This document shows, one piece after another, positions 1,449-56,395 of a DNA stretch of 64,000 nucleotides (its first letter is position 1; each line of letters opens with the position of its first letter). Location: positions 201,198-265,197 of the forward strand of contig NZ_NSKH01000024.1 in the NCBI RefSeq assembly GCF_003144095.1, written 5' to 3'. Position numbers and translations under genes: made by a program. The notes beneath the pieces were generated by a model that saw only the letters and a program-made list of their open reading frames with translations, ran no database searches and was not told the origin of the DNA. Source of the DNA: Streptomyces sp. ICBB 8177. Its GTDB lineage: Bacteria; Actinomycetota; Actinomycetes; Streptomycetales; Streptomycetaceae.

Positions 1449-1537
1449 CCGCTTCGGCCTGTCCGGCGGGTGCGGGCCGCCCGCTCGGCCACGTCTGACC
1501 CGACGCAGCCTGCCCCGCTCGCGGCGGATCGGGTTTG

Positions 1538-3391
1538 ATGGACGGTATGAGTGATGTCTTGGCCGGCATGCCGGAGTGGGAGAAGCGGTTCCGGGCGCCG
1601 CGGGTGGGGCTACCGGAGTGGGCGCAGGACGCCCCTGACCGTTCGTTGTTCGTCTCCAACGCCACGGGGACGTACGAGCTGTACGCCTGGGACCGCGCGA
1701 CCGGCGCGCGACGGCAGGTGACCGACCGGCCGAACGGCACGACCGACGGCACGCTGACGCCGGACGGCGAGTGGGTGTGGTGGTTCTCCGACACCGACGG
1801 CGACGAGTTCGGCGTGTGGATGCGCCAGTCGTTCCACGGGGGCGAGGACGTCCCGGCCGCGCCCGGGGTGGCCGCCGCCTACCCCGCGGGCGTCGCGCTG
1901 GGCCGCGACGGGCTCGCGGTGGTCGGCTGCTCGACGGACGACGAGGGCACCACGGTGTACGTGCTGCGGCCGGGCGCCGAGCCGGTGGAGATCTACCGCC
2001 ACGAGCAGTCCGCGGGCGTCGGCGACCTCAGCGAGGACGGCACGCTGCTGGTGATCGAGCACACCGAGCACGGCGACGCGATGCACAGCGCGCTGCGCGT
2101 GGTCGACCTCGACGGCCGCACGGTCGCCGAGCTGGACGACACCGAGGGCGGCACCCGCGAACTCGGCCTGGAGTGCCTGGGGTTCGCCCCGGTCGCCGGG
2201 GACACCCGGCTGCTCGTCGGCCACCAGCGGCGCGGGCGCTGGGAGCCCGCGCTGTGGGACGTGGCGAGCGGCGCGCTGACGGAACTGGCGATCGACCTGC
2301 CCGGCGACATCAGCGCCGACTGGTACCCGGACGGCTCGGCCCTGCTGGTCGAGCACACCTACCGGGGCCGCAGCGAGCTGTGGCGCCACGAGCTGGCGAC
2401 CGGCGCGCTCACCCGCATCCCCACCGACCCCGGCACCATCGGCGGCGCCACCGCCCGCCCGGACGGCACGGTGGAGTTCCTGTGGTCGTCGGCCGCGCTG
2501 CCGCCGCAGGTGCGCTCCGACCGGGGCGGCCTCGTGCTGGAGGCGCCGGGCTTCACCGCTCCGGCGTCGGTTCCGGTCGAGGACGTCTGGGTGGAAGGTC
2601 CGGGCGGCCCGGTGCACGCGCTGGTGCAGCGGCCCGAGGGCGAGGGCCCGTTCCCGACCGTCTTCGACATCCACGGCGGCCCCGCCTGGCACGACAGCGA
2701 CGCCTTCGCGGCGGCCCCGGCGGCCTGGATCGACCACGGCTACGCGGTGGTGCGCGTCAACTACCGCGGCTCCACCGGTTACGGGCGCGAGTGGACGGAC
2801 GCGCTGAAGATCCGCGTGGGCCTGATCGAGCTGGAGGACATCGCGGCGGTACGCGCCTGGGCGGTGGACAGCGGGCTCGCCGACCCGTCGCGGCTGGTGC
2901 TGTCCGGCGGTTCGTGGGGCGGCTACCTGACGCTGCTGGGTCTGGGCACCCAGCCGGAGGCGTGGTCGGTGGGGCTCGCGGCGGTGCCGGTGGCGGACTA
3001 CCTGGCCAGCTACGAGGACGAGATGGAGCCGTTGAAGGCGCTGGACCGCACGATGTTCGGCGGCTCCCCGCAGGAGGTGCCCGAGCGCTACACCGCGTCG
3101 TCGCCGATCACCTACGTGGAGGCCGTGCGGGCGCCGGTCTTCATCTCGGCCGGCACCAACGACCCGCGCTGCCCGATACGGCAGATCGACAACTACGTGG
3201 GGCGGCTGGCGGAGCTGGGCAGGACCCACGAGGTCTACCGCTACGACGCCGGGCACGGCTCGCTCGTCGTCGAGGAACGGATCAAGCAGCTGCGGCTGGA
3301 GCTGGCGTTCGCCGAGAAGCACCTGGGCGGCGCCCCGGGCTCCGGCGAACGGCCCCCGCTGAGCGGCGTGGGCTCGGCACCGCAGTCCTGA
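1538..3391 (+). CDS. S9 family peptidase (prolyl oligopeptidase / acylaminoacyl-peptidase-like)
   Basis: GGSWGGYL nucleophile-elbow motif (GxSxGG). N-terminal beta-propeller-like region. C-terminal alpha/beta hydrolase with RCPIRQ and YDAGHG. Confidence 0.85.
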   Translation: MDGMSDVLAGMPEWEKRFRAPRVGLPEWAQDAPDRSLFVSNATGTYELYAWDRATGARRQVTDRPNGTTDGTLTPDGEWVWWFSDTDGDEFGVWMRQSFHGGEDVPAAPGVAAAYPAGVALGRDGLAVVGCSTDDEGTTVYVLRPGAEPVEIYRHEQSAGVGDLSEDGTLLVIEHTEHGDAMHSALRVVDLDGRTVAELDDTEGGTRELGLECLGFAPVAGDTRLLVGHQRRGRWEPALWDVASGALTELAIDLPGDISADWYPDGSALLVEHTYRGRSELWRHELATGALTRIPTDPGTIGGATARPDGTVEFLWSSAALPPQVRSDRGGLVLEAPGFTAPASVPVEDVWVEGPGGPVHALVQRPEGEGPFPTVFDIHGGPAWHDSDAFAAAPAAWIDHGYAVVRVNYRGSTGYGREWTDALKIRVGLIELEDIAAVRAWAVDSGLADPSRLVLSGGSWGGYLTLLGLGTQPEAWSVGLAAVPVADYLASYEDEMEPLKALDRTMFGGSPQEVPERYTASSPITYVEAVRAPVFISAGTNDPRCPIRQIDNYVGRLAELGRTHEVYRYDAGHGSLVVEERIKQLRLELAFAEKHLGGAPGSGERPPLSGVGSAPQS

Positions 3392-5553: not shown

Positions 5554-6051
5554 GCCGGGGTCTCCATGGCGACACGGAGGGCCGCGATGCCGCGGGACCC
5601 GTACGCCTTGACGGAGCCTACGGATATGCCCAGCGTCTCGGCCACCTGAGCCTCGGTCATGTCGGCGAAGTACCGCAGCACCAGCACCTCGCGCTGGCGC
5701 CGTTGCAGGCCGCGCATCGAGCGGATGAGCTGGTCGCGTTCCAGCTGCTCGTAGGCGCCCTCCTCGGCGCTGGCCATGTCCGGCATCGGCTTGGACAGCA
5801 GCTTCAGGCCCAGGATGCGGCGGCGCAGCGCGGAGCGGGAGAGGTTGACGACCGTCTGGCGCAGGTAGGCGAGGGTCTTCTCGGGCTCGCGGACCCGGCC
5901 GCGGGCGGAGTGCACCCGGATGAACGCCTCCTGGACGACGTCCTCGCAGGAGGCGGTGTCGTCCAGCAGCAGCGCGGCGAGGCCGAGCAGCGAACGGTAG
6001 TGGGCGCGGTAGGTCTCGGTGAGGTGGTCGACCGTGGTGCCCGCGGTCATC
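5550..6051 (-). CDS. ECF (sigma-70 family) RNA polymerase sigma factor
   Basis: Region 2 (YRAHYRSLLGLAALLL...DVVQEAFIRVH) and region 4 (REVLVLRYFADMTEAQVAETLGISVGSVKAYGSRG). Start chosen at MTAGTT; the ORF extends further upstream. Confidence 0.75.
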
Positions 6052-6367
6052 GCGTCGTCAGCGCCCGCCGCGGTGGCACTCACCGGGGCGTCCGCCGGCG
6101 CGTGCGCGACCGGCCAGGGCGCGATCACCGGCAGACCGCCCGAGGGACGGGACGCACGCAACGGCGCGGGAGCGCTCCCCGCCCGTCCCAGCGGCGCCGT
6201 GAAGGGCGTTGCCATGCCGAGTGCCTCTGCCACGACTGTTGGACTCCCGCCCACCCGCAAGGGTTGTACGAGATCCGCATGCGAACCAACTCATCCCCAC
6301 TGCCCCGGTCTGCGCCGACAACCCGATACGCCCCCGTTACCGCCGATACGAGGCCGCCGGTACGAAA

Positions 6368-6413
6368 AAACACGCTCCCCGCCCAACTGCCGTGGCAGCA
6401 GGGCGGGGAGCGT
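6368..6413 (-). terminator. Rho-independent terminator downstream of asd
   Basis: 13-bp perfect stem ACGCTCCCCGCCC/GGGCGGGGAGCGT followed on the minus strand by a T-run (plus-strand AAAAAAC). Confidence 0.7.
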
Positions 6414-6505
6414 CATTGTCGAACGTCCGAGCGGTCCGCTTCAAGCGGTACAGACCACAGACTTCGTCACAAGTCCTTCACAAGACCGGTCGTCCGGCAG
6501 GGCTT

Positions 6506-7627
6506 TCAGGCGCCGGTCAGTTCGGCGGCGACCAGCTCGGCGATTTGAGCGGTGTTCAGCGCGGCCCCCTTGCGGAGGTTGTCGCCGCACAGGAACAGCT
6601 CCAGCGCGTACGGGTCGTCGAGCGACCGGCGGACCCGGCCGACCCAGGTCGGGTCGGTGCCCACCGCGTCGGCGGGGGTGGGGAACTCGCCCTCGGCCGG
6701 GTTGTCGCAGACCACGACGCCCGGCGCGCTGCCCAGGATCTCGTGCGCCCGGGCCACCGACACCTCGTTCTCGAACCGCGCGTGGACGGTGAGCGAGTGC
6801 GTGGTGATGACGGGGACGCGCACACAGGTCGCGTTGACCCGCAGGTCGGGCAGGCCGAGGATCTTGCGGGACTCGTTGCGGACCTTCAGCTCCTCGCTGG
6901 ACCAGCCCTCGTCCTTCAGCGAGCCCGCCCACGGCACCACGTTGAGCGCCAGCGGCGCCGGGAACGGGCCGAAGTCACCGACGGCGCGCCGCACGTCGCC
7001 GGGCTGGGTGCCCAGGGAGGTGCCGCCCACCTTGGCGATCTGCTCGCGCAGGGTGTCGATGCCGGGCTGGCCCGCGCCGGACGCCGCCTGGTAGGAGGAG
7101 ACGACCAGCTCGGACAGGCCGAACTCGGCGTGCAGCGCGCCCAGCGCCACGATCATCGACAGCGTGGTGCAGTTGGGGTTGGAGATGATGCCGCGCGGAC
7201 GCACCCGCGCCGCGTGCGCGTTGACCTCCGGGACCACCAGCGGCACGTCGTCGTCCATGCGGAACGCGCCGGAGTTGTCCACCGCCACCGCGCCCTTGGA
7301 GGCCGCGATCGGCGCCCACTGCGCGGAGACCTCGTCCGGCACGTCGAACATCGCGACGTCGACGCCCTCGAACGCCTCCTCGCTCAGCGCGACGACCTCG
7401 ACCTCCTCGCCGCGCACGACGAGCCTGCGCCCGGCGGAGCGCGGGGAGGCGATCAGCCGGATCTCGCCCCAGACGTCCTCGCGCGAGGAGAGGATGCCCA
7501 GCATCACGGTCCCGACCGCGCCGGTGGCACCGACGACGGCCAAAGTGGGCTTCGGCACGGAGTGCCGTCCGTCAGGGGTGGCGGCCGGGTGACGGGTGGG
7601 CTTCCTGCCCTTGGGGAACGCGGTCAT
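6506..7627 (-). CDS. asd: Aspartate-semialdehyde dehydrogenase
   Basis: [11 protein letters not shown]...[11 protein letters not shown]...IISNPNCTT...[10 protein letters not shown]. Start overlaps the ask stop (ATGA). Confidence 0.9.
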
Positions 7628-13767: not shown

Positions 13768-16746
<2,979 letters not shown>

Positions 16747-27224: not shown

Positions 27225-27249
27225 CAGCCCGCCCCCTCGCCTTCCGCGA

Positions 27250-27333
27250 ATCAGTTGTCACCCCCTTGTCTCCGGCAACAACCTCAGGTTGACAATTCGT
27301 TGTCTCCGACAAGGGGGTGACAACTGATTCACG
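27250..27333. repeat. Long imperfect inverted repeat (about 25-bp arms) in the convergent intergenic region
   Basis: TGAATCAGTTGTCACCCCCTTGTC ... GACAAGGGGGTGACAACTGATTCA with a 35-nt spacer that has its own internal dyad symmetry. Confidence 0.75.
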
Positions 27334-27344
27334 GGGAACGAGGC

Positions 27345-28285: not shown

Positions 28286-29526
28286 TCAGCGAGGCGATCT
28301 CCGCCTCCAACTCGGCCAATCGCCGGTCCCGTTTGTGACGGGGCCGAACTCGGCGCACAGCTCTCGGAGTCTACGAGTCAGGTAGCCGGAAGACGAGGCG
28401 CGAGCGAGTTCGACGGCCTCCCGGCCATACGACACCGCTTGTTCCAGGTCGCACCGCTTCACGCCGACGGCGCGAGGTCTGTCAACACAGCACCCCTTCT
28501 GCGATATGACTGCCCAGCGGCCAGGGCAGTGTTCCCCAGAGCCAAACTGAGCGTCGTCTCCGCACTTTCCAAACGCTCTAGTCGCACGTACCTGGCACCG
28601 CGCTCCTCCGCGAGACGAGAGCCATCGAACCTGAGCCATCCGCCGTTGCTAACGACCGGAGTGAGGTCCCGGACCTTCTCCGCACGGTCCAACGCGTCTT
28701 CGCAGGCTCGAAGTTCGCCCATACCGGCGTACGCCTCCGCTTGGACCGACGCGACCCAATGACGGGTCGGGAGCGCGCTGTCCCCATGCTCAGCCAGCCT
28801 CTCAGCCACACCAAGCATCTGTGACGCCTGGCCATAGCGGTGCTCTGCCATGTCAACATAGGCATGCCGTACCAAGGCGCATGCCCACAAGTCATAGGCC
28901 CCGGCCTCCCTGCTGAGCGATGCTGCGAGGACGTAGGAGGCCGCGGCGTCGTCATAGCGGTTCGCGTCGAAGGCCACCTCACCGGCCAACTGGAGGAGGT
29001 CTGCCGCAGCGGTCATGAGCGGCGGAATGTTCCCACGGCCAGCGGTCATCGCCTCGTTGACCGCTACGAGTTGGTCGCGGGCGAACCGTGCGTACGGATT
29101 GCTTCGACCTCGCCAGTTGGTAGACCTGCCAGAGATGACTGTTCATCCGGCTGAATTCAGTGGGCGTCGCCCGTCGAACACCCGTAGCGAGGGCTTCGGT
29201 TTCTTCGGCGGGAAGAGCGGCAAGTGCTCCGCTGAGGGCGAGCGAGCGAAGAAACGCGGCGAATCATCTCGTCATGCTCTCCGGCATTCGGGCGAACTTC
29301 GGCTTCGTGCGTGGTTTCTGCCCCGTCTGCTGTTCGGGACGTCGACAGGAGTGCATCGAGTTCTTGGAGGCTGACGTCCAACGCGGCCGCCAAACGCCGT
29401 CGCTGCGGTGGTTGAGGGGCGATCCTCCCGGCCTCCCAGCGCCCGACCGTCGTACGGTCCACGCCGAGTAACTCGGCCAGCTTCTCCTGACTGTAGCCCA
29501 GCACCCTGCGCCTCTTCGCCAATCCC
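28286..29526 (-). pseudogene. XRE-family HTH regulator with C-terminal TPR-like domain, split across three frames (at least two frameshifts)
   Basis: HTH piece 29526-29157 (LGYSQEKLAELLGVDRTTVGRWEAG), middle TPR-like piece 29049-28459, and C-terminal piece 28639-28286, all on the minus strand but in different frames. Confidence 0.55.
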
Positions 29527-30006
29527 ATGGCCGAACCTTCCCACAACGCGAGGCTTTCGCAGACCGTGCGCGGGTCTGCGTCAAGTCTGCCGCACTGATG
29601 CCGTGGTTACCCACGTCTTCGCGCGCTTTCCTGATGCAGCGGAGGATGAGCACGGTGAGCCCGGGAGGAGTTGCCATGGCCACAGGAGATCCCGACCCAG
29701 AAGGCGAGTTGAACAGTTGTTCCCGAAGTCGAGAACGGCTCAGCGAACAGCGAGTCCTCATGACGTACAGAGTCTCTCGTGATTCCGGACGTACTTGGGA
29801 GCAGTCACCCAGGTGCTTGGGGACGACCACCTGCCGATCCTGGACAACCCACGTCGCTATCCACCCTGCGCGTGCCCACGTTGTTCAGGCGTGGCCGACG
29901 GCCCCGGTCGCGCAACGACAGTCTGGCCAGTTGCGGACCTGTAGGAGCGAGCCATCGTCTCCAGCGGGTCCAACCACACCGAAGGATCGAAACCAAAGGA
30001 GAAGCA

Positions 30007-30158
30007 TGCGAATCGCAGCGATCAGGCACATGGACACCAGCGGAGCGTTCGCGCAAGGCGACGAGGAGAAGGACAAGCTGCCGGGGCAGCCGTGGACGCC
30101 GCAGCCGCCCTCGCCGGACGGTGGTAGTCCTCAGGGTGACGGGAAGCACCGCAAGTGA
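30007..30158 (+). CDS. Small precursor-like peptide (50 aa) with a conserved Asp-Gly-rich C-terminus; candidate substrate of the downstream PIMT homolog
   Basis: ATG preceded by a perfect AAGGAG RBS at 5-nt spacing. Product is MRIAAIRHMDTSGAFAQGDEEKDKLPGQPWTPQPPSPDGGSPQGDGKHRK. Its stop TGA overlaps the GTG start of the next gene. A paralog is present at 34166. Confidence 0.7.
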
Positions 30159-31303
30159 CCGACACGGACACCGGCCGCCCCAGCGACGAGTTGGGGCGGT
30201 ACCTCCTTGATCGCGGTGACATGACATCGGACTGGGCCGTGCCTTTCGCCGCCGTGCCGCGTGCGGCGTTCCTGCCCGACCGGATGTGGGTCTGGGACAT
30301 GGAGACACAGGGGACTGAACTCCACGACAAGCAAGATGACTTGGCCGCTTGGACCCGTGCCGCCTACCGTGACGCGCCGATCGTCACCCAGTGGGACGAC
30401 GGCCGGCACGCCGGGTCCACGGCCGGGAGGCTCGCCACCAGCTCGGCGTCGATGCCCTCCGTGGTCCTGAGCATGCTGCGGGACCTCGACGTCGTGGACG
30501 GTGTGCGGGTACTGGAGATCGGCACCGGCACGGGCTGGAACGCGGGGCTCCTGTGTGCCCGCCGGGGCGAGGCGAACGTCGTCACCGTCGAGGTCGACGC
30601 CCAGGTGGCCGCCACCGCACGCACCGCGCTGGGCAGAGCCGGGCTGCGGCCCGCCGTCGTCTGCGGTGACGGCGCGGCCGGATACGGTGTCCGCGCACCG
30701 TACGACCGCGTGATCGCCACCGTGGGCGTGCGTAGCGTGCCGTACGCGTGGATCGAGCAGACCCGCCCCGGCGGAATCGTGCTCACCCCCTGGGGCACGC
30801 ACTACAGCAACCAGGAGGCCCTGGCCCGCCTCACGGTGGACGAGGACGGCACGGCGTCGGGTCCGTTCCTGCGGCCGGTCGAGTTCATGACCCTGCGCGG
30901 CCAGCGTCTCGACTGGGGGCGGTTCTCCGGCCACGTTCCGGAGGACTACGCGTCGATTCCTGCCGTGCGGAGAAGCTGCGTCACCTTGGCCGAACTGACC
31001 GGCACCGCCCAGCAGTTCGTGTGCGGGCTGCGGATGCACCGGTGCGCCCAGGTCGTCAACGGGCGCCGCGTCTGGCTCTTCGACATGGACTCGACGTCCT
31101 GGGTTCTGGCGGAGTTCCCGGAGGAAGACGGCCCACCGCTGGTGAGGCAGTTGGGGCCGCGACCCTTGTGGGACGAGTTGCTATGCGTCCTCGAATGGTG
31201 GAGACGGGGAGGCTCGCCGGGCCCCCGCCACTTCGGGCTGACGGTCACTCCCAACGGTCAGTCGGCATGGCTTCTCGACCGCGCCAACGCCTGGGTCGTG
31301 TGA
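30155..31303 (+). CDS. Protein-L-isoaspartate(D-aspartate) O-methyltransferase (PIMT/PCMT) family protein with an approximately 150-aa C-terminal extension
   Basis: VLEIGTGTGWNAGLL SAM motif I and overall PCMT-like N-terminal layout. GTGA overlap with the upstream peptide gene. The architecture resembles PIMT homologs found in RiPP clusters. Confidence 0.8.
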   Translation: MTDTDTGRPSDELGRYLLDRGDMTSDWAVPFAAVPRAAFLPDRMWVWDMETQGTELHDKQDDLAAWTRAAYRDAPIVTQWDDGRHAGSTAGRLATSSASMPSVVLSMLRDLDVVDGVRVLEIGTGTGWNAGLLCARRGEANVVTVEVDAQVAATARTALGRAGLRPAVVCGDGAAGYGVRAPYDRVIATVGVRSVPYAWIEQTRPGGIVLTPWGTHYSNQEALARLTVDEDGTASGPFLRPVEFMTLRGQRLDWGRFSGHVPEDYASIPAVRRSCVTLAELTGTAQQFVCGLRMHRCAQVVNGRRVWLFDMDSTSWVLAEFPEEDGPPLVRQLGPRPLWDELLCVLEWWRRGGSPGPRHFGLTVTPNGQSAWLLDRANAWVV

Positions 31304-31402
31304 CTACGCGGGACTCTTGTCTCCGGCCCGCGTGCCGAAGGCCCCCGTCGCGGTGGGCGCGCTGGGGGCCTTCGGGGTGAGGCGGCGTCAAAAGGGCTCG
31401 CC

Positions 31403-32599
31403 TCAGCGGATGTTCACCGGGCCGTCGTCGTCCGAAGTGCCGTCCTGCGGGCGGGTCTTGGCCGTGCCCAGGTAGCGCTGGAGCTGTGCGCCGGGGGCCG
31501 GAGAGGAAGACGCGCCGTCCGCGCCGCTGAGGTTGCGGCGGACCGAGTCCAGGATCGTCAGGCCCTGGCCGACCAGGCCCGCCGCGATCTCGCCCAGGCC
31601 GTCCGCGCCGTTGAGGACGTTGACGTTCGCGCCGGCCAGGCCCGCCGACGCCTCCTTGACGATCTGCGGCAGCTGGTCGATCAGCATGCGGTCGAGCGCG
31701 ACGCGGTCGTGCGAGGCGGCGGCCTCTGCCTGGATCTTCATCCGTTCGGCCTCGGCCAGCGCCAGCACCCGGATGCGCTCGGCCTCCGCCTGCGCGGGCT
31801 TGACCACCTCGGCGACCAGCTGCTGCTGCCGCAACTGGGCCGCGCGCTCTGCCAGTTCGGTCTGCGCCGCCAGCACCTCCTGCTGGGCGTGCGCCTGCGC
31901 CAGCGGTCCGGCCTGCGCGGCCTGCGCCTGGACGCGGTCCACCTCGGCGTTGTACTGCGCCTGCACGACCGCGGTCTGCCGGGCGTACTCGGCCTGGTTG
32001 CGGGCCGCCTCCTGCTGCGCCTCCACCGACTGCTGGGTGGCCTGCGCCTGCGCGATCTGCGCCTGCCGCTGGATGGCCGCCTTGTGCGGGGCGGACATCG
32101 CGTCGATGTAACCGGTGTCCCCGTCGTCGATCGACTGGATCTGCAACGAGTCCACGATCAGGCCGATCTTGGCCATCTCCGCCTTGGACGTCTCCAGCAC
32201 CTCGGTGGCGAGCTTCTGCCGTTCGGTGACGATCTCCTCGACCGTCATCGAGCCGATGATGGCCCGCAGGTGGCCCGCGAAGATGCGGCCGGTCAGGATC
32301 GACATCTGGTCCTGGTCGGACAGGAAGCGCTGACCGGCGTTGACGATGCTCTCGTTGTCGTTGCCGACCTTGAACGCGATCACGGCCTTCACCGTCAGCG
32401 CGATGCCCTGCTTGGTCACGCACTTCTCTGCGACCTCCGCCTCGCACATCGCGAGGGTGAGGAAGCGGACCTTGCGGAACACGGGGAGGACGAACTTGCC
32501 GTGCCCCGTCACCACCCGGAACGGAGCACCCCCCTGGCCCCGCCTGCCCCCCGAGATCAGCATCGCCTCGTCAGGGGCGGGAACGCGGTAACCGAACAT
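31403..32599 (-). CDS. Flotillin-like SPFH/band-7 domain protein
   Basis: SPFH domain (EAEVAEKCVTKQGIALTVKAVIAFKV...) followed by a long Ala/Gln-rich coiled coil. Confidence 0.85.
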   Translation of the reverse strand: MFGYRVPAPDEAMLISGGRRGQGGAPFRVVTGHGKFVLPVFRKVRFLTLAMCEAEVAEKCVTKQGIALTVKAVIAFKVGNDNESIVNAGQRFLSDQDQMSILTGRIFAGHLRAIIGSMTVEEIVTERQKLATEVLETSKAEMAKIGLIVDSLQIQSIDDGDTGYIDAMSAPHKAAIQRQAQIAQAQATQQSVEAQQEAARNQAEYARQTAVVQAQYNAEVDRVQAQAAQAGPLAQAHAQQEVLAAQTELAERAAQLRQQQLVAEVVKPAQAEAERIRVLALAEAERMKIQAEAAASHDRVALDRMLIDQLPQIVKEASAGLAGANVNVLNGADGLGEIAAGLVGQGLTILDSVRRNLSGADGASSSPAPGAQLQRYLGTAKTRPQDGTSDDDGPVNIR

Positions 32600-33866: not shown

Positions 33867-34166
33867 GTGCGTTCACCCGAAGCCCGCGCCCGCGAGGTCG
33901 CCGACCGGCTGGCGGCCGCGACCGGCACCGAGGCCCGCACCCTCGCGACCCCGGAGGCCATCCGGGTCGAGGTCTACGTCCCCGACGAGATCCCGGAGCC
34001 GCTGCACACCGCCCTCGTCGACGCCCTGCGCCGCGCCGACCGCTACGGGCACGCGCGCACGGCGGACGCGGCGGTGGCGTGGGCGGAGATCACCCGTACC
34101 GGCCGGGGCGACGTGCCCGGCGAAGAGCACGACCACCCACCCCAGCCCCAGGAGGGAACGCCATGA
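33867..34166 (+). CDS. Hypothetical protein (about 99 aa), translationally coupled to peptide copy 2
   Basis: Very high GC3. GTG with a GGGGA RBS; an alternative ATG lies at 33831. Stop TGA overlaps the ATG of the peptide gene (ATGA). Confidence 0.5.
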   Translation: MRSPEARAREVADRLAAATGTEARTLATPEAIRVEVYVPDEIPEPLHTALVDALRRADRYGHARTADAAVAWAEITRTGRGDVPGEEHDHPPQPQEGTP

Positions 34167-34297
34167 GGATCGAGATCCTGACGCACGCAGGCGGCGACGG
34201 CGGCGACAGCCTCCCCGGCCAGCCCTGGCAGCCCCCGCAGGAGCCGCCGAGCCCGGACGGCGGCAGCCCCGAGGGGGACGGGAAGCACCGCAGGTGA
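34166..34297 (+). CDS. Small precursor-like peptide, copy 2 (43 aa), paralog of the 30007 gene
   Basis: GGAGG RBS. Product is MRIEILTHAGGDGGDSLPGQPWQPPQEPPSPDGGSPEGDGKHRR. The C-terminal 27 aa are nearly identical to copy 1. Stop TGA overlaps a GTG start (GTGA), as in copy 1. Confidence 0.65.
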   Translation, partial: RIEILTHAGGDGGDSLPGQPWQPPQEPPSPDGGSPEGDGKHRR

Positions 34298-34689
34298 CCG
34301 TGCGCGACACGGCGCGAGCGCGGCCCACCCGGCAGGAGCTGGGCCGCGCCCTGCGCGCCTCGGGTGCGCTGGGTCAGGCCTGGGTGCCCGCTTTCGAAGC
34401 GGTCGACCGGGCCGCGTTCCTGCCCGACGTGATGTGGCCGTACGACATGGCGACCGGCGCCAGTGCCACGGTGGACCGGCGCACCGATCCGGACGCCTGG
34501 TTCGCCTGCGCCGACCGCGATGTACCGATCACCACGCAGTGGGACGACGGCGCGCACGAAGGACCGGCGCCGGGGAGGGTCGCCACCTCGTCGTCGTCCA
34601 TGCCGTCGGTCGTCTTCCGGATGCTGGACGACCTCGCGCTGGTCCTCGCCGTCGGAACGCCTTCACAAGAAGTTCGCGGGGAACACTGA
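34294..34689 (+). pseudogene. Truncated paralog of the PIMT-family methyltransferase (N-terminal about 130 aa only)
   Basis: ...VPAFEAVDRAAFLPDVMWPYDM...ITTQWDDGAHEGPAPGRVATSSSSMPSVVFRMLDDL aligns to residues of about 25-115 of the 30155 protein, then ends in a stop before the SAM-binding motif. A lower-GC junction follows (ATCCACACATATGTTTGTCTGCATGATTTCGG). Confidence 0.65.
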
Positions 34690-55740: not shown

Positions 55741-55831
55741 TGGCGGAGGATACGAGATTCGAACTCGTGAGGGGTTGCCCCCAACACGCTTTCCAAGCGT
55801 GCGCCCTAGGCCACTAGGCGAATCCTCCGCC
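55741..55831 (-). tRNA. tRNA-Ser (anticodon GGA)
   Basis: Reverse complement GGCGGAGGATTCGCC...CACGC-TTGGAAA-GCGTG...long variable arm...GAGTTCGAATCTC...CTCCGCCA folds as a cloverleaf. Acceptor 7/7, anticodon loop UUGGAAA, genomic CCA. Confidence 0.9.
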
Positions 55832-56395
55832 GCACACATTACAAGACCGCGGGGGGTGGTTGCGAACTCGATCCCGGGGCCGGGGATCGGGTAGGCTGGG
55901 CGCAGCCCCTCACGTGGCGCTATCTCGCTGAACTCCCCCAGGGCCGGAAGGCAGCAAGGGTAGGTGGGCTCTGGCGGGTGCGTGGGGGGTCTTCGCGTCT
56001 TTCGGCGCCTCACGAGCCTGGCGGGCCCTCCCGCGACGGAAGTGCCCGCGGCGACGTGCGCCGGCTCTCCGTCCGGCCACTTGCCGCCGACCCGCGCGGA
56101 GGTGTGACGAAGGCGACACCGTCGTCAGCGTTCCCCCGAGGCAAACGCCGGCGAGCCCCGGCACCTTCCGACTCGGACCACGAAATCCCGTCAGGACCGA
56201 ACCCGTCGCGCCGCCGCGCCCCGTACCTACCATTTCAAGCCATATCCGACGCCTCGGCCGGAGTGTCCCCGCCGCGGTGTCAAGGGCTCTACGGGCGCGT
56301 ACGGGGGCGGAAAGGGGTGCCGAGGGGTCCCCCATCGTGGGCGGGGGCCTTCGGCTGGGCTGCGGCCGCACAGCCTTGGCCGGTAGGCTTTCCGT

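Follow-up and report, generated by a model that had tools for sequence, protein, structure and literature searches.

A probable two-gene imiditide (type I pamtide) cluster with an Asp-Gly-containing peptide in Streptomyces sp. ICBB 8177

Anatomy and conservation of the peptide–methyltransferase pair

We analysed a 64-kb stretch of DNA from Streptomyces sp. ICBB 8177 (contig NZ_NSKH01000024.1; hereafter the window), in which a short peptide gene, precursor 1, runs directly into the gene of a methyltransferase (MT1) that is a homologue of protein isoaspartyl methyltransferases (PIMTs). Precursor 1 (30006..30158, + strand) is an open reading frame (ORF) of 50 codons, translated as the 50-residue peptide MRIAAIRHMDTSGAFAQGDEEKDKLPGQPWTPQPPSPDGGSPQGDGKHRK. 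An AAGGAG ribosome-binding site, read from the sequence at 29996..30001 (+), is separated from its ATG by a 4-nt spacer. The stop codon TGA (30156-30158) overlaps the GTG start codon of MT1 (30155-30157) in the 4-nt sequence GTGA, and the MT1 gene (30155..31303, +) encodes a 382-aa protein that its PCMT match and fold model, described below, mark as a PIMT-homologous peptide L-aspartyl O-methyltransferase. A first-pass annotation of this DNA, made from the letters alone, had described the 50-codon ORF, its AAGGAG site, its peptide and the TGA/GTG overlap with a 382-aa protein ending at 31303, all of which stand; its start at 30007 and its 5-nt spacing are replaced by the ATG at 30006 and the 4-nt spacer.

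In the NCBI annotation, precursor 1 is a hypothetical protein (P0121) and the methyltransferase (P0001) is 360 aa long, beginning at an internal Met 22 residues downstream of the GTG. Sequence comparison supports the longer GTG start over the annotated Met start, because the N-terminal stretch ELGRxLLDxG..T.DW is conserved in homologues, a paralogous pair elsewhere in the window shows the same GTGA overlap, and the 4-nt overlap recurs in the called gene pairs of four other genomes (our loci L001 and L082-L084). Neither the window methyltransferase nor P0001 gave an exact-sequence match on record.

The peptide consists of a variable N-terminal stretch of 17 residues followed by the conserved core GDEEKDKLPGQPWTPQPPSPDGGSPQGDGKHRK. 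Among its 50 residues are seven Gly, seven Pro, five Asp and four Lys, with DEEKDK in the N-terminal half, KHRK at the C-terminal end and not a single cysteine. Two Asp-Gly dipeptides lie in the core: Asp38-Gly39 in a PDG motif (codons at 30117..30122, +), the site of methylation and aspartimide formation predicted from conservation across homologues, and Asp45-Gly46 in GDGK (30138..30143, +), which homologue comparison shows to be less conserved.

Consensus scans of 29400-31500 called no sigma-70 promoter and no intrinsic terminator. Folding of the RNA from 31304-31402 gave a minimum free energy of -60.7 kcal/mol (z = -2.99) and placed a GC-rich stem-loop at 31335..31375 (no strand assigned), 3' of the methyltransferase gene; it was missed by the terminator scan because it has no T-run. 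Lying between the convergent methyltransferase and flotillin genes, this stem-loop is likely the end of a two-gene operon.

The nearest reference for the pair is the locus of Streptantibioticus parmotrematis (L001), whose enzyme is 83% identical to MT1 and whose orthologous peptide ORF lies at L001 9852-10004. Comparison of the two peptide genes shows 8 non-synonymous changes in codons 1-17; in codons 18-50 all 12 changes are synonymous and none is non-synonymous. A protein search retrieved 15 annotated peptide homologues of 39-50 aa, nearly all of them ending in ...LPGQPW.P...PSPDGGSPEGDGKHRK. We then took 80 genome loci in Streptomyces, Streptacidiphilus, Kitasatospora and related genera, each with an enzyme relative 49-83% identical to MT1, and searched on the same strand for an ORF that ends at or just before the enzyme start and contains PGxP[W/Y/F], 7-15 residues and P[DN][GS]. 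A PGxP[W/Y/F]...PDG ORF precedes the enzyme in 68 of the 80 loci, with a median peptide length of 45 aa; the other 12 include frameshifted versions in three and a PDSG variant in two. The co-occurrence of peptide and PIMT homologue that the first-pass annotation had suggested checking is thus strongly conserved. All 68 motif-matched homologues have Asp-Gly at the PDG position, where Asp is encoded by GAC (63 loci) or GAT (5 loci) and Gly by each of its four codons; codons vary at the motif residues, and conservation therefore acts at the protein level. The purely synonymous divergence of codons 18-50 (12 changes), together with a matching upstream ORF in 68 of 80 loci, identifies the peptide ORF as a real gene under purifying selection, far beyond chance.

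Tblastn searches with 17 neighbouring window proteins found the peptide–enzyme pair to be the only conserved unit across the 80 loci. For the flotillin gene, the ORF in the NfeD position and the GntR, NUDIX and MacB-ABC genes, synteny is confined to the closest relative, and they are therefore not part of the system; the neighbours were accordingly dropped as a functional clue.

Two further observations come from the same loci. Several genomes have two peptide–methyltransferase pairs each (L030/L037, L040/L069, L059/L080 and L071/L072); in Streptomyces specialis, L071 and L072 have identical precursors and face opposite ways on a single contig, with an overlap of ~480 bp between the retrieved ranges, and may be an inverted duplicate. 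In four loci (L014 7555-7977, L022 7555-7977, L066 7316-7999 and L078 5399-5737) the precursor frame is open far upstream, allowing 112-227 aa, which could be an open-frame artefact of high GC content or a precursor fused to a larger N-terminal protein.

Family and fold of the methyltransferase

MT1 belongs to the PIMT family, as had been proposed at first reading: Pfam PCMT (PF01135) matches at E=1.2e-25 over residues 69-249, with ~130 residues after the end of the match, and PDB PIMT sequences match residues ~95-250. The S-adenosylmethionine (SAM) motif is VLEIGTGTGWNAGLL, where GTGTG corresponds to G123-T-G125-T-G127, and these three glycines are invariant among 61 homologues. The protein carries an additional N-terminal region of ~90 aa and a C-terminal domain of ~130 aa. 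The latter contains W349-RRG-G353-S-P355, an instance of the WXXXGXP motif reported for PIMTs associated with peptides that are made ribosomally and then modified post-translationally (RiPPs) (10.1101/2023.04.07.536058; PMC13001092). W348, W349 and G353 do not vary among the 61 homologues, in which conservation of P355 reaches at least 90%.

The AlphaFold2 model based on the 61 homologues is confident, with a mean predicted local distance difference test score (pLDDT) of 87.4 and a predicted template-modelling score (pTM) of 0.87. Its top fold match is the two-domain PIMT of Thermotoga maritima, 1DL5 (Foldseek E=1.5e-20, 369 alignment columns, 23% identity), which covers both the catalytic and the C-terminal domain, the modelled C-terminal domain aligning with that of 1DL5; single-domain PIMTs cover only ~245 columns of the modelled enzyme. 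As modelled, the two-domain fold matches the published description of RiPP-associated 'PAMT' enzymes. The T. maritima enzyme itself, unlike the one proposed here, repairs isoaspartate (isoAsp) in damaged proteins and has no partner peptide.

That MT1 is likewise an ordinary protein-repair isoaspartyl methyltransferase, lying by an unrelated ORF, is extremely unlikely. Its Pfam PCMT and PDB PIMT matches would suit such an enzyme, but canonical repair PIMTs are single domains of ~210 aa, and MT1 has 382 aa with extra N-terminal and WXXXGXP-bearing C-terminal regions and a conserved partner peptide. Its scores against the repair models, 68.8 for TIGR00080 (cut-off 159) and 86.4 for NF001453 (cut-off 188), are far under these equivalog thresholds.

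The best NCBIfam match is TIGR04188, the methyltransferase model of the ATP-grasp peptide maturase system, at 3.1e-88 and 296.6 bits against a cut-off of 380. The comparison with TIGRFAM models of RiPP-associated PIMT homologues, recommended in the first-pass annotation, thus yielded a nearly full-length match that falls short of the threshold. The FxLD lanthipeptide methyltransferase model TIGR04364 aligns with residues 93-212 only, at 107 bits against a cut-off of 320. Because the graspetide, FxLD-lanthipeptide and repair-PIMT scores all lie under their cut-offs, MT1 is, as judged by these profiles, a RiPP-type PIMT homologue outside the curated subfamilies.

The surroundings agree with this placement in containing no enzyme of another RiPP class. 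Pfam scans, which took in ~54 ORFs over the whole window, detected no ATP-grasp ligase, LanB/LanC, lasso cyclase/peptidase, YcaO, FHA/VWA or radical-SAM partner, so that the reported absence of LanB/LanC, lasso B/C and ATP-grasp genes holds for the window. Other RiPP partner enzymes were likewise absent within 10 kb on each side of the pair in S. parmotrematis, S. halobius, S. xinghaiensis and Actinacidiphila acididurans.

These results bear on the possibility that MT1 is an orphaned graspetide (graspimiditide) or lanthipeptide tailoring enzyme, whose ATP-grasp or LanBC partner and actual substrate would be encoded elsewhere in the genome, the small ORF beside it being incidental. Methyltransferases of the graspimiditide type (ThfM, AmdM; TIGR04188) do provide the closest curated sequence model, in a nearly full-length match, and share with MT1 the domain architecture and, by inference, the chemistry. 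They need an ATP-grasp-cyclised substrate, however, and here the score is under the cut-off and there is no ATP-grasp or Lan gene in the 64 kb, or in the 10 kb on each side in the four relatives. Selection on the small ORF is moreover purifying, and the ORF co-varies with the enzyme in 68 of 80 loci; we regard the orphan explanation as very improbable. An FxLD lanthipeptide methyltransferase was rejected on its low score, the absence of Lan genes from the window and the lack of Cys in the peptide, and a lasso tailoring enzyme was rejected since no lasso enzyme was found across the ~54 window ORFs.

Class assignment, predicted chemistry and site of modification

The first-pass annotation had held that PIMT homologues always stand beside a LanB/C, lasso or ATP-grasp enzyme, and that the pair did not represent a described RiPP class. 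The first statement is outdated and the second is contradicted by the literature. Imiditides are two-gene clusters of only a precursor and a PIMT homologue (Cao et al. 2023, 10.1101/2023.04.07.536058); type I pamtides were named independently for the same class (Lee et al. 2023, PMC10787088), and a 2026 review covers both names (PMC13001092). Imiditide precursors are described as 30-75 aa long, often unannotated and rich in Gly, Pro, Lys and Asp, and their PIMT homologues as 300-450 aa long with GXGXG and a special C-terminal domain; mining with a 41-aa C-terminal MEME motif predicted 670 clusters, with Streptomyces the most represented genus (10.1101/2023.04.07.536058). The review counts 1414 type I pamtides (PMC13001092). 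In the 2023 description of type I pamtides, precursors are ~45 aa long with ~17% Gly, ~17% Pro and ~10% Asp, a conserved Asp beside a conserved Pro/Gly, an acidic N-terminal and a basic C-terminal part (PMC10787088). NmaM methylates Asp28 of linear NmaA, leading to aspartimide (10.1101/2023.04.07.536058), and SpaM of Streptomyces sparsogenes acts on linear SpaA to give +14 and -18 Da species (PMC10787088); products of both masses are reported from linear precursors for both pairs (10.1101/2023.04.07.536058; PMC10787088).

The window pair shows every bioinformatic hallmark of this class that could be tested. MT1 combines a PIMT catalytic domain (PF01135, 1.2e-25) and GXGXG (G123-T-G125-T-G127) with a WXXXGXP-bearing C-terminal domain (W349...P355), for which the class range is 110-180 aa, and at 382 aa it falls within the total of 300-450 aa. 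The class definition places an Asp-containing ORF of 30-75 aa on the same strand, up to 500 bp upstream (or 1000 bp downstream), and here a 50-aa ORF overlaps the enzyme gene by 4 nt. The peptide is rich in Gly, Pro, Asp and Lys, has Asp beside Pro/Gly, and is acidic in its N-terminal and basic in its C-terminal part; enzymes of other RiPP classes and FHA/VWA or radical-SAM neighbours are absent from the 64-kb window and from the 10-kb flanks in the four relatives. The pair is thus very probably a two-gene imiditide/type I pamtide cluster of Streptomyces sp. ICBB 8177, a new and uncharacterised member of a class published in 2023. The idea in the first-pass annotation of a minimal peptide-plus-methyltransferase pair that aspartimidylates a linear peptide, or converts it to isoAsp, is the best-supported reading. 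A full-text literature search for the precursor core motifs returned unrelated papers only.

The pair resembles both published systems closely. As in NmaA/NmaM of Nonomuraea maritima (46 and 373 aa, against 50 and 382 aa here), the precursor lies directly upstream of the PIMT homologue, is linear and rich in Gly, Pro, Asp and Lys, the enzyme has GXGXG and WXXXGXP, and the cluster has no other RiPP enzyme; NmaA differs in its site, Asp28-His29, which gives an unusually stable aspartimide, whereas both candidate sites here are Asp-Gly. SpaA/SpaM shares the Streptomyces lineage and a precursor of ~45 aa that is rich in Gly/Pro/Asp, acidic at its N-terminal and basic at its C-terminal end, with Asp beside Pro/Gly. 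The invariant KHRK tail here fits the requirement of SpaM for the C-terminal residues of SpaA; the modified residue of SpaA is Asp23, in contrast to Asp38 predicted here. Cysimiditides (type II pamtides) have the same two-gene architecture of precursor and PAMT, but were set aside because that class requires two CxxCxGxG zinc-ribbon motifs flanking the Asp, and the peptide here is cysteine-free.

Another explanation would make the small ORF a regulatory upstream ORF or leader that couples translation, the enzyme having other proteins as substrates (for example Pro/Gly-rich ones, as proposed for FHA-associated PAMTs), or would make the peptide a tight-binding regulator or inhibitor of the enzyme. 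The overlap of stop and start codons would fit a coupling device, and about 12 of the 80 loci have no clean ORF. The neighbour tblastn across the 80 loci found no conserved protease or exporter with the pair, and NmaA–NmaM binding is very tight with low turnover (10.1101/2023.04.07.536058). The amino-acid sequence of the peptide is nevertheless conserved across genera, with an invariant Asp-Gly encoded by varied codons, which points to a substrate or ligand rather than a coupling device, and homologous systems modify the peptide directly (10.1101/2023.04.07.536058; PMC10787088; PMC13001092). We consider the regulatory explanation unlikely.

For an imiditide/type I pamtide pair, the chemistry can be inferred by analogy with NmaM and SpaM. 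Precursor and methyltransferase would probably be co-translated from one presumed transcript, since their stop and start codons overlap. The extra C-terminal domain, typical of RiPP-associated enzymes, would serve in substrate recognition, and the contacts of the enzyme with its linear, Pro/Gly-rich precursor would probably be made by the PGQPW...PDG core and by the basic KHRK tail. SAM-dependent methylation of one Asp side-chain carboxylate, most likely that of Asp38, would then allow the backbone nitrogen of Gly39 to attack the methyl ester spontaneously, giving an aspartimide (-18 Da). This imide would hydrolyse fairly quickly to a mixture of isoAsp and Asp in which isoAsp dominates; fast formation and hydrolysis are expected because Gly follows Asp, as in SpaA, the imide of NmaA, with His next, being long-lived.

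The first-pass annotation had treated the two Asp-Gly sites as equals, and here the comparative data lead to a different view. Among the 68 motif-matched homologues neither Asn nor Ser occurs at the PDG position, though the pattern P[DN][GS] allowed both. Asp45 is kept in 36 of the 45 HRK-type homologues and replaced by G, N, H or S in nine, and its site is absent from the 23 homologues with other C-termini, mostly of the PDGGPGVPNPPK type. Conservation therefore favours Asp38 as the most likely modified residue, and Asp45 could be a second, facultative site.

Several points weigh against the class assignment or its details. The top-ranking NCBIfam model, though below its cut-off, is TIGR04188, a model of graspetide-system methyltransferases. 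The likeness drawn between the pair and NmaA/NmaM or SpaA/SpaM is one of published architecture, composition and motifs, and the chemistry proposed for the locus and its precursor subfamily draws on analogy with NmaM and SpaM. The sigma-70 consensus scan, of limited value in Streptomyces, called no promoter for the pair. Conservation is the sole ground for preferring Asp38 to Asp45, and since an ORF had to contain P[DN][GS] to match the search pattern, the invariance of Asp38 is partly built in.

A second copy, wider implications and surroundings

About 4 kb downstream lies a second, degenerate copy of the pair that the first-pass annotation had overlooked. Precursor peptide gene 2 (34163..34297, +) is intact and encodes the 44-aa peptide MRIEILTHAGGDGGDSLPGQPWQPPQEPPSPDGGSPEGDGKHRR behind an upstream AGGAGGG; its orthologue in S. 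parmotrematis lies at L001 14221-14358. It overlaps through GTGA, as in the first pair, with a methyltransferase remnant (MT2; 34294..34689, +), which has no Pfam match and in which residues 1-115 are conserved up to a cut before the SAM-binding motif. Over this stretch the remnant shares 89% identity with the MT2 of S. parmotrematis, which is intact at 395 aa, and beyond it the sequence diverges. Nucleotide comparison reveals a deletion of ~4.4 kb, window positions 34639/34658 corresponding to L001 14700/19129, with which, relative to S. parmotrematis, the remainder of MT2 was lost along with genes for TetR, an FAD mono-oxygenase and a 475-aa product. Identity between MT1 and the MT2 of S. 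parmotrematis is just 48%, and the duplication is therefore old.

The PGxP[W/Y/F]...PDG family is characterised by a polyproline core, an invariant Asp-Gly and a tail of either GDG[KT]HRK or PDGGPGVPNPPK. As a tentative proposal, and a rather doubtful one at present, it might form a functionally distinct imiditide subgroup whose HRK-type members are perhaps modified at two Asp-Gly sites, and in which one enzyme might serve several precursors in trans. In this genome precursor 2 has stayed intact, although a deletion has removed the methyltransferase that belonged to it. If one enzyme does serve several precursors, the site of action of the peptides might be intracellular, no exporter or protease being conserved, and they would then not be secreted natural products.

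The value of the locus for class discovery is small: both the architecture and the chemistry have been in print since 2023, and the clusters already catalogued, most often in Streptomyces, number from hundreds to thousands. Tractable members are useful for work on the biological role of imiditides, and this family, with its well-conserved motif PGxPW...PDG...GDGKHRK, a clear candidate site and short peptides (median 45 aa), would be convenient for studies of linear-substrate recognition. The intact orphan precursor 2 with its deleted cognate enzyme offers a natural test of cross-reactivity between paralogous methyltransferases.

The window as a whole is chromosomal core, with dnaX, recR, ybaB, ask, asd, two-component systems, a MacB-type ABC exporter, a terpene synthase, the signal recognition particle (SRP) RNA and a tRNA. 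The flanks of the pair are largely as first described. Downstream lie a convergent flotillin/Band_7 gene, as reported, and a short ORF that occupies the NfeD position and has no Pfam match. Upstream, the pseudogene of an XRE-HTH/TPR regulator (28286-29546, -) is split over three reading frames, in contrast to L011, where an intact 439-aa XRE-TPR orthologue (5929-7248) takes the corresponding place upstream of its pair; S. parmotrematis lacks the whole segment 28294-29973. In L082-L084, too, XRE/HTH_31 regulators lie no more than a few kb from the pair, which in Streptomyces may be due to chance.

A prolyl oligopeptidase family gene (Peptidase_S9; 1535-3391, +) lies 27 kb from the Pro-rich precursor; the called genes around the pair in the four relatives include none, and it is probably unrelated. 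A large ORF ~13 kb upstream (13774-16746, +), unrelated to the pair, carries two Terpene_syn_C_2 domains (E=3.4e-109) and encodes a geosmin-synthase-type terpene synthase of two domains. An imperfect intergenic palindrome at 27235-27343 has 45-nt arms that are 80% complementary around a 19-nt spacer. An 87.5%-identical copy lies at L001 11145-11238, just downstream of the S. parmotrematis methyltransferase, where the window has no counterpart, which suggests a small mobile palindromic element. Finally, a tRNA gene (55744-55828, -) adjoins the bacterial small SRP RNA (55901-55997, +).

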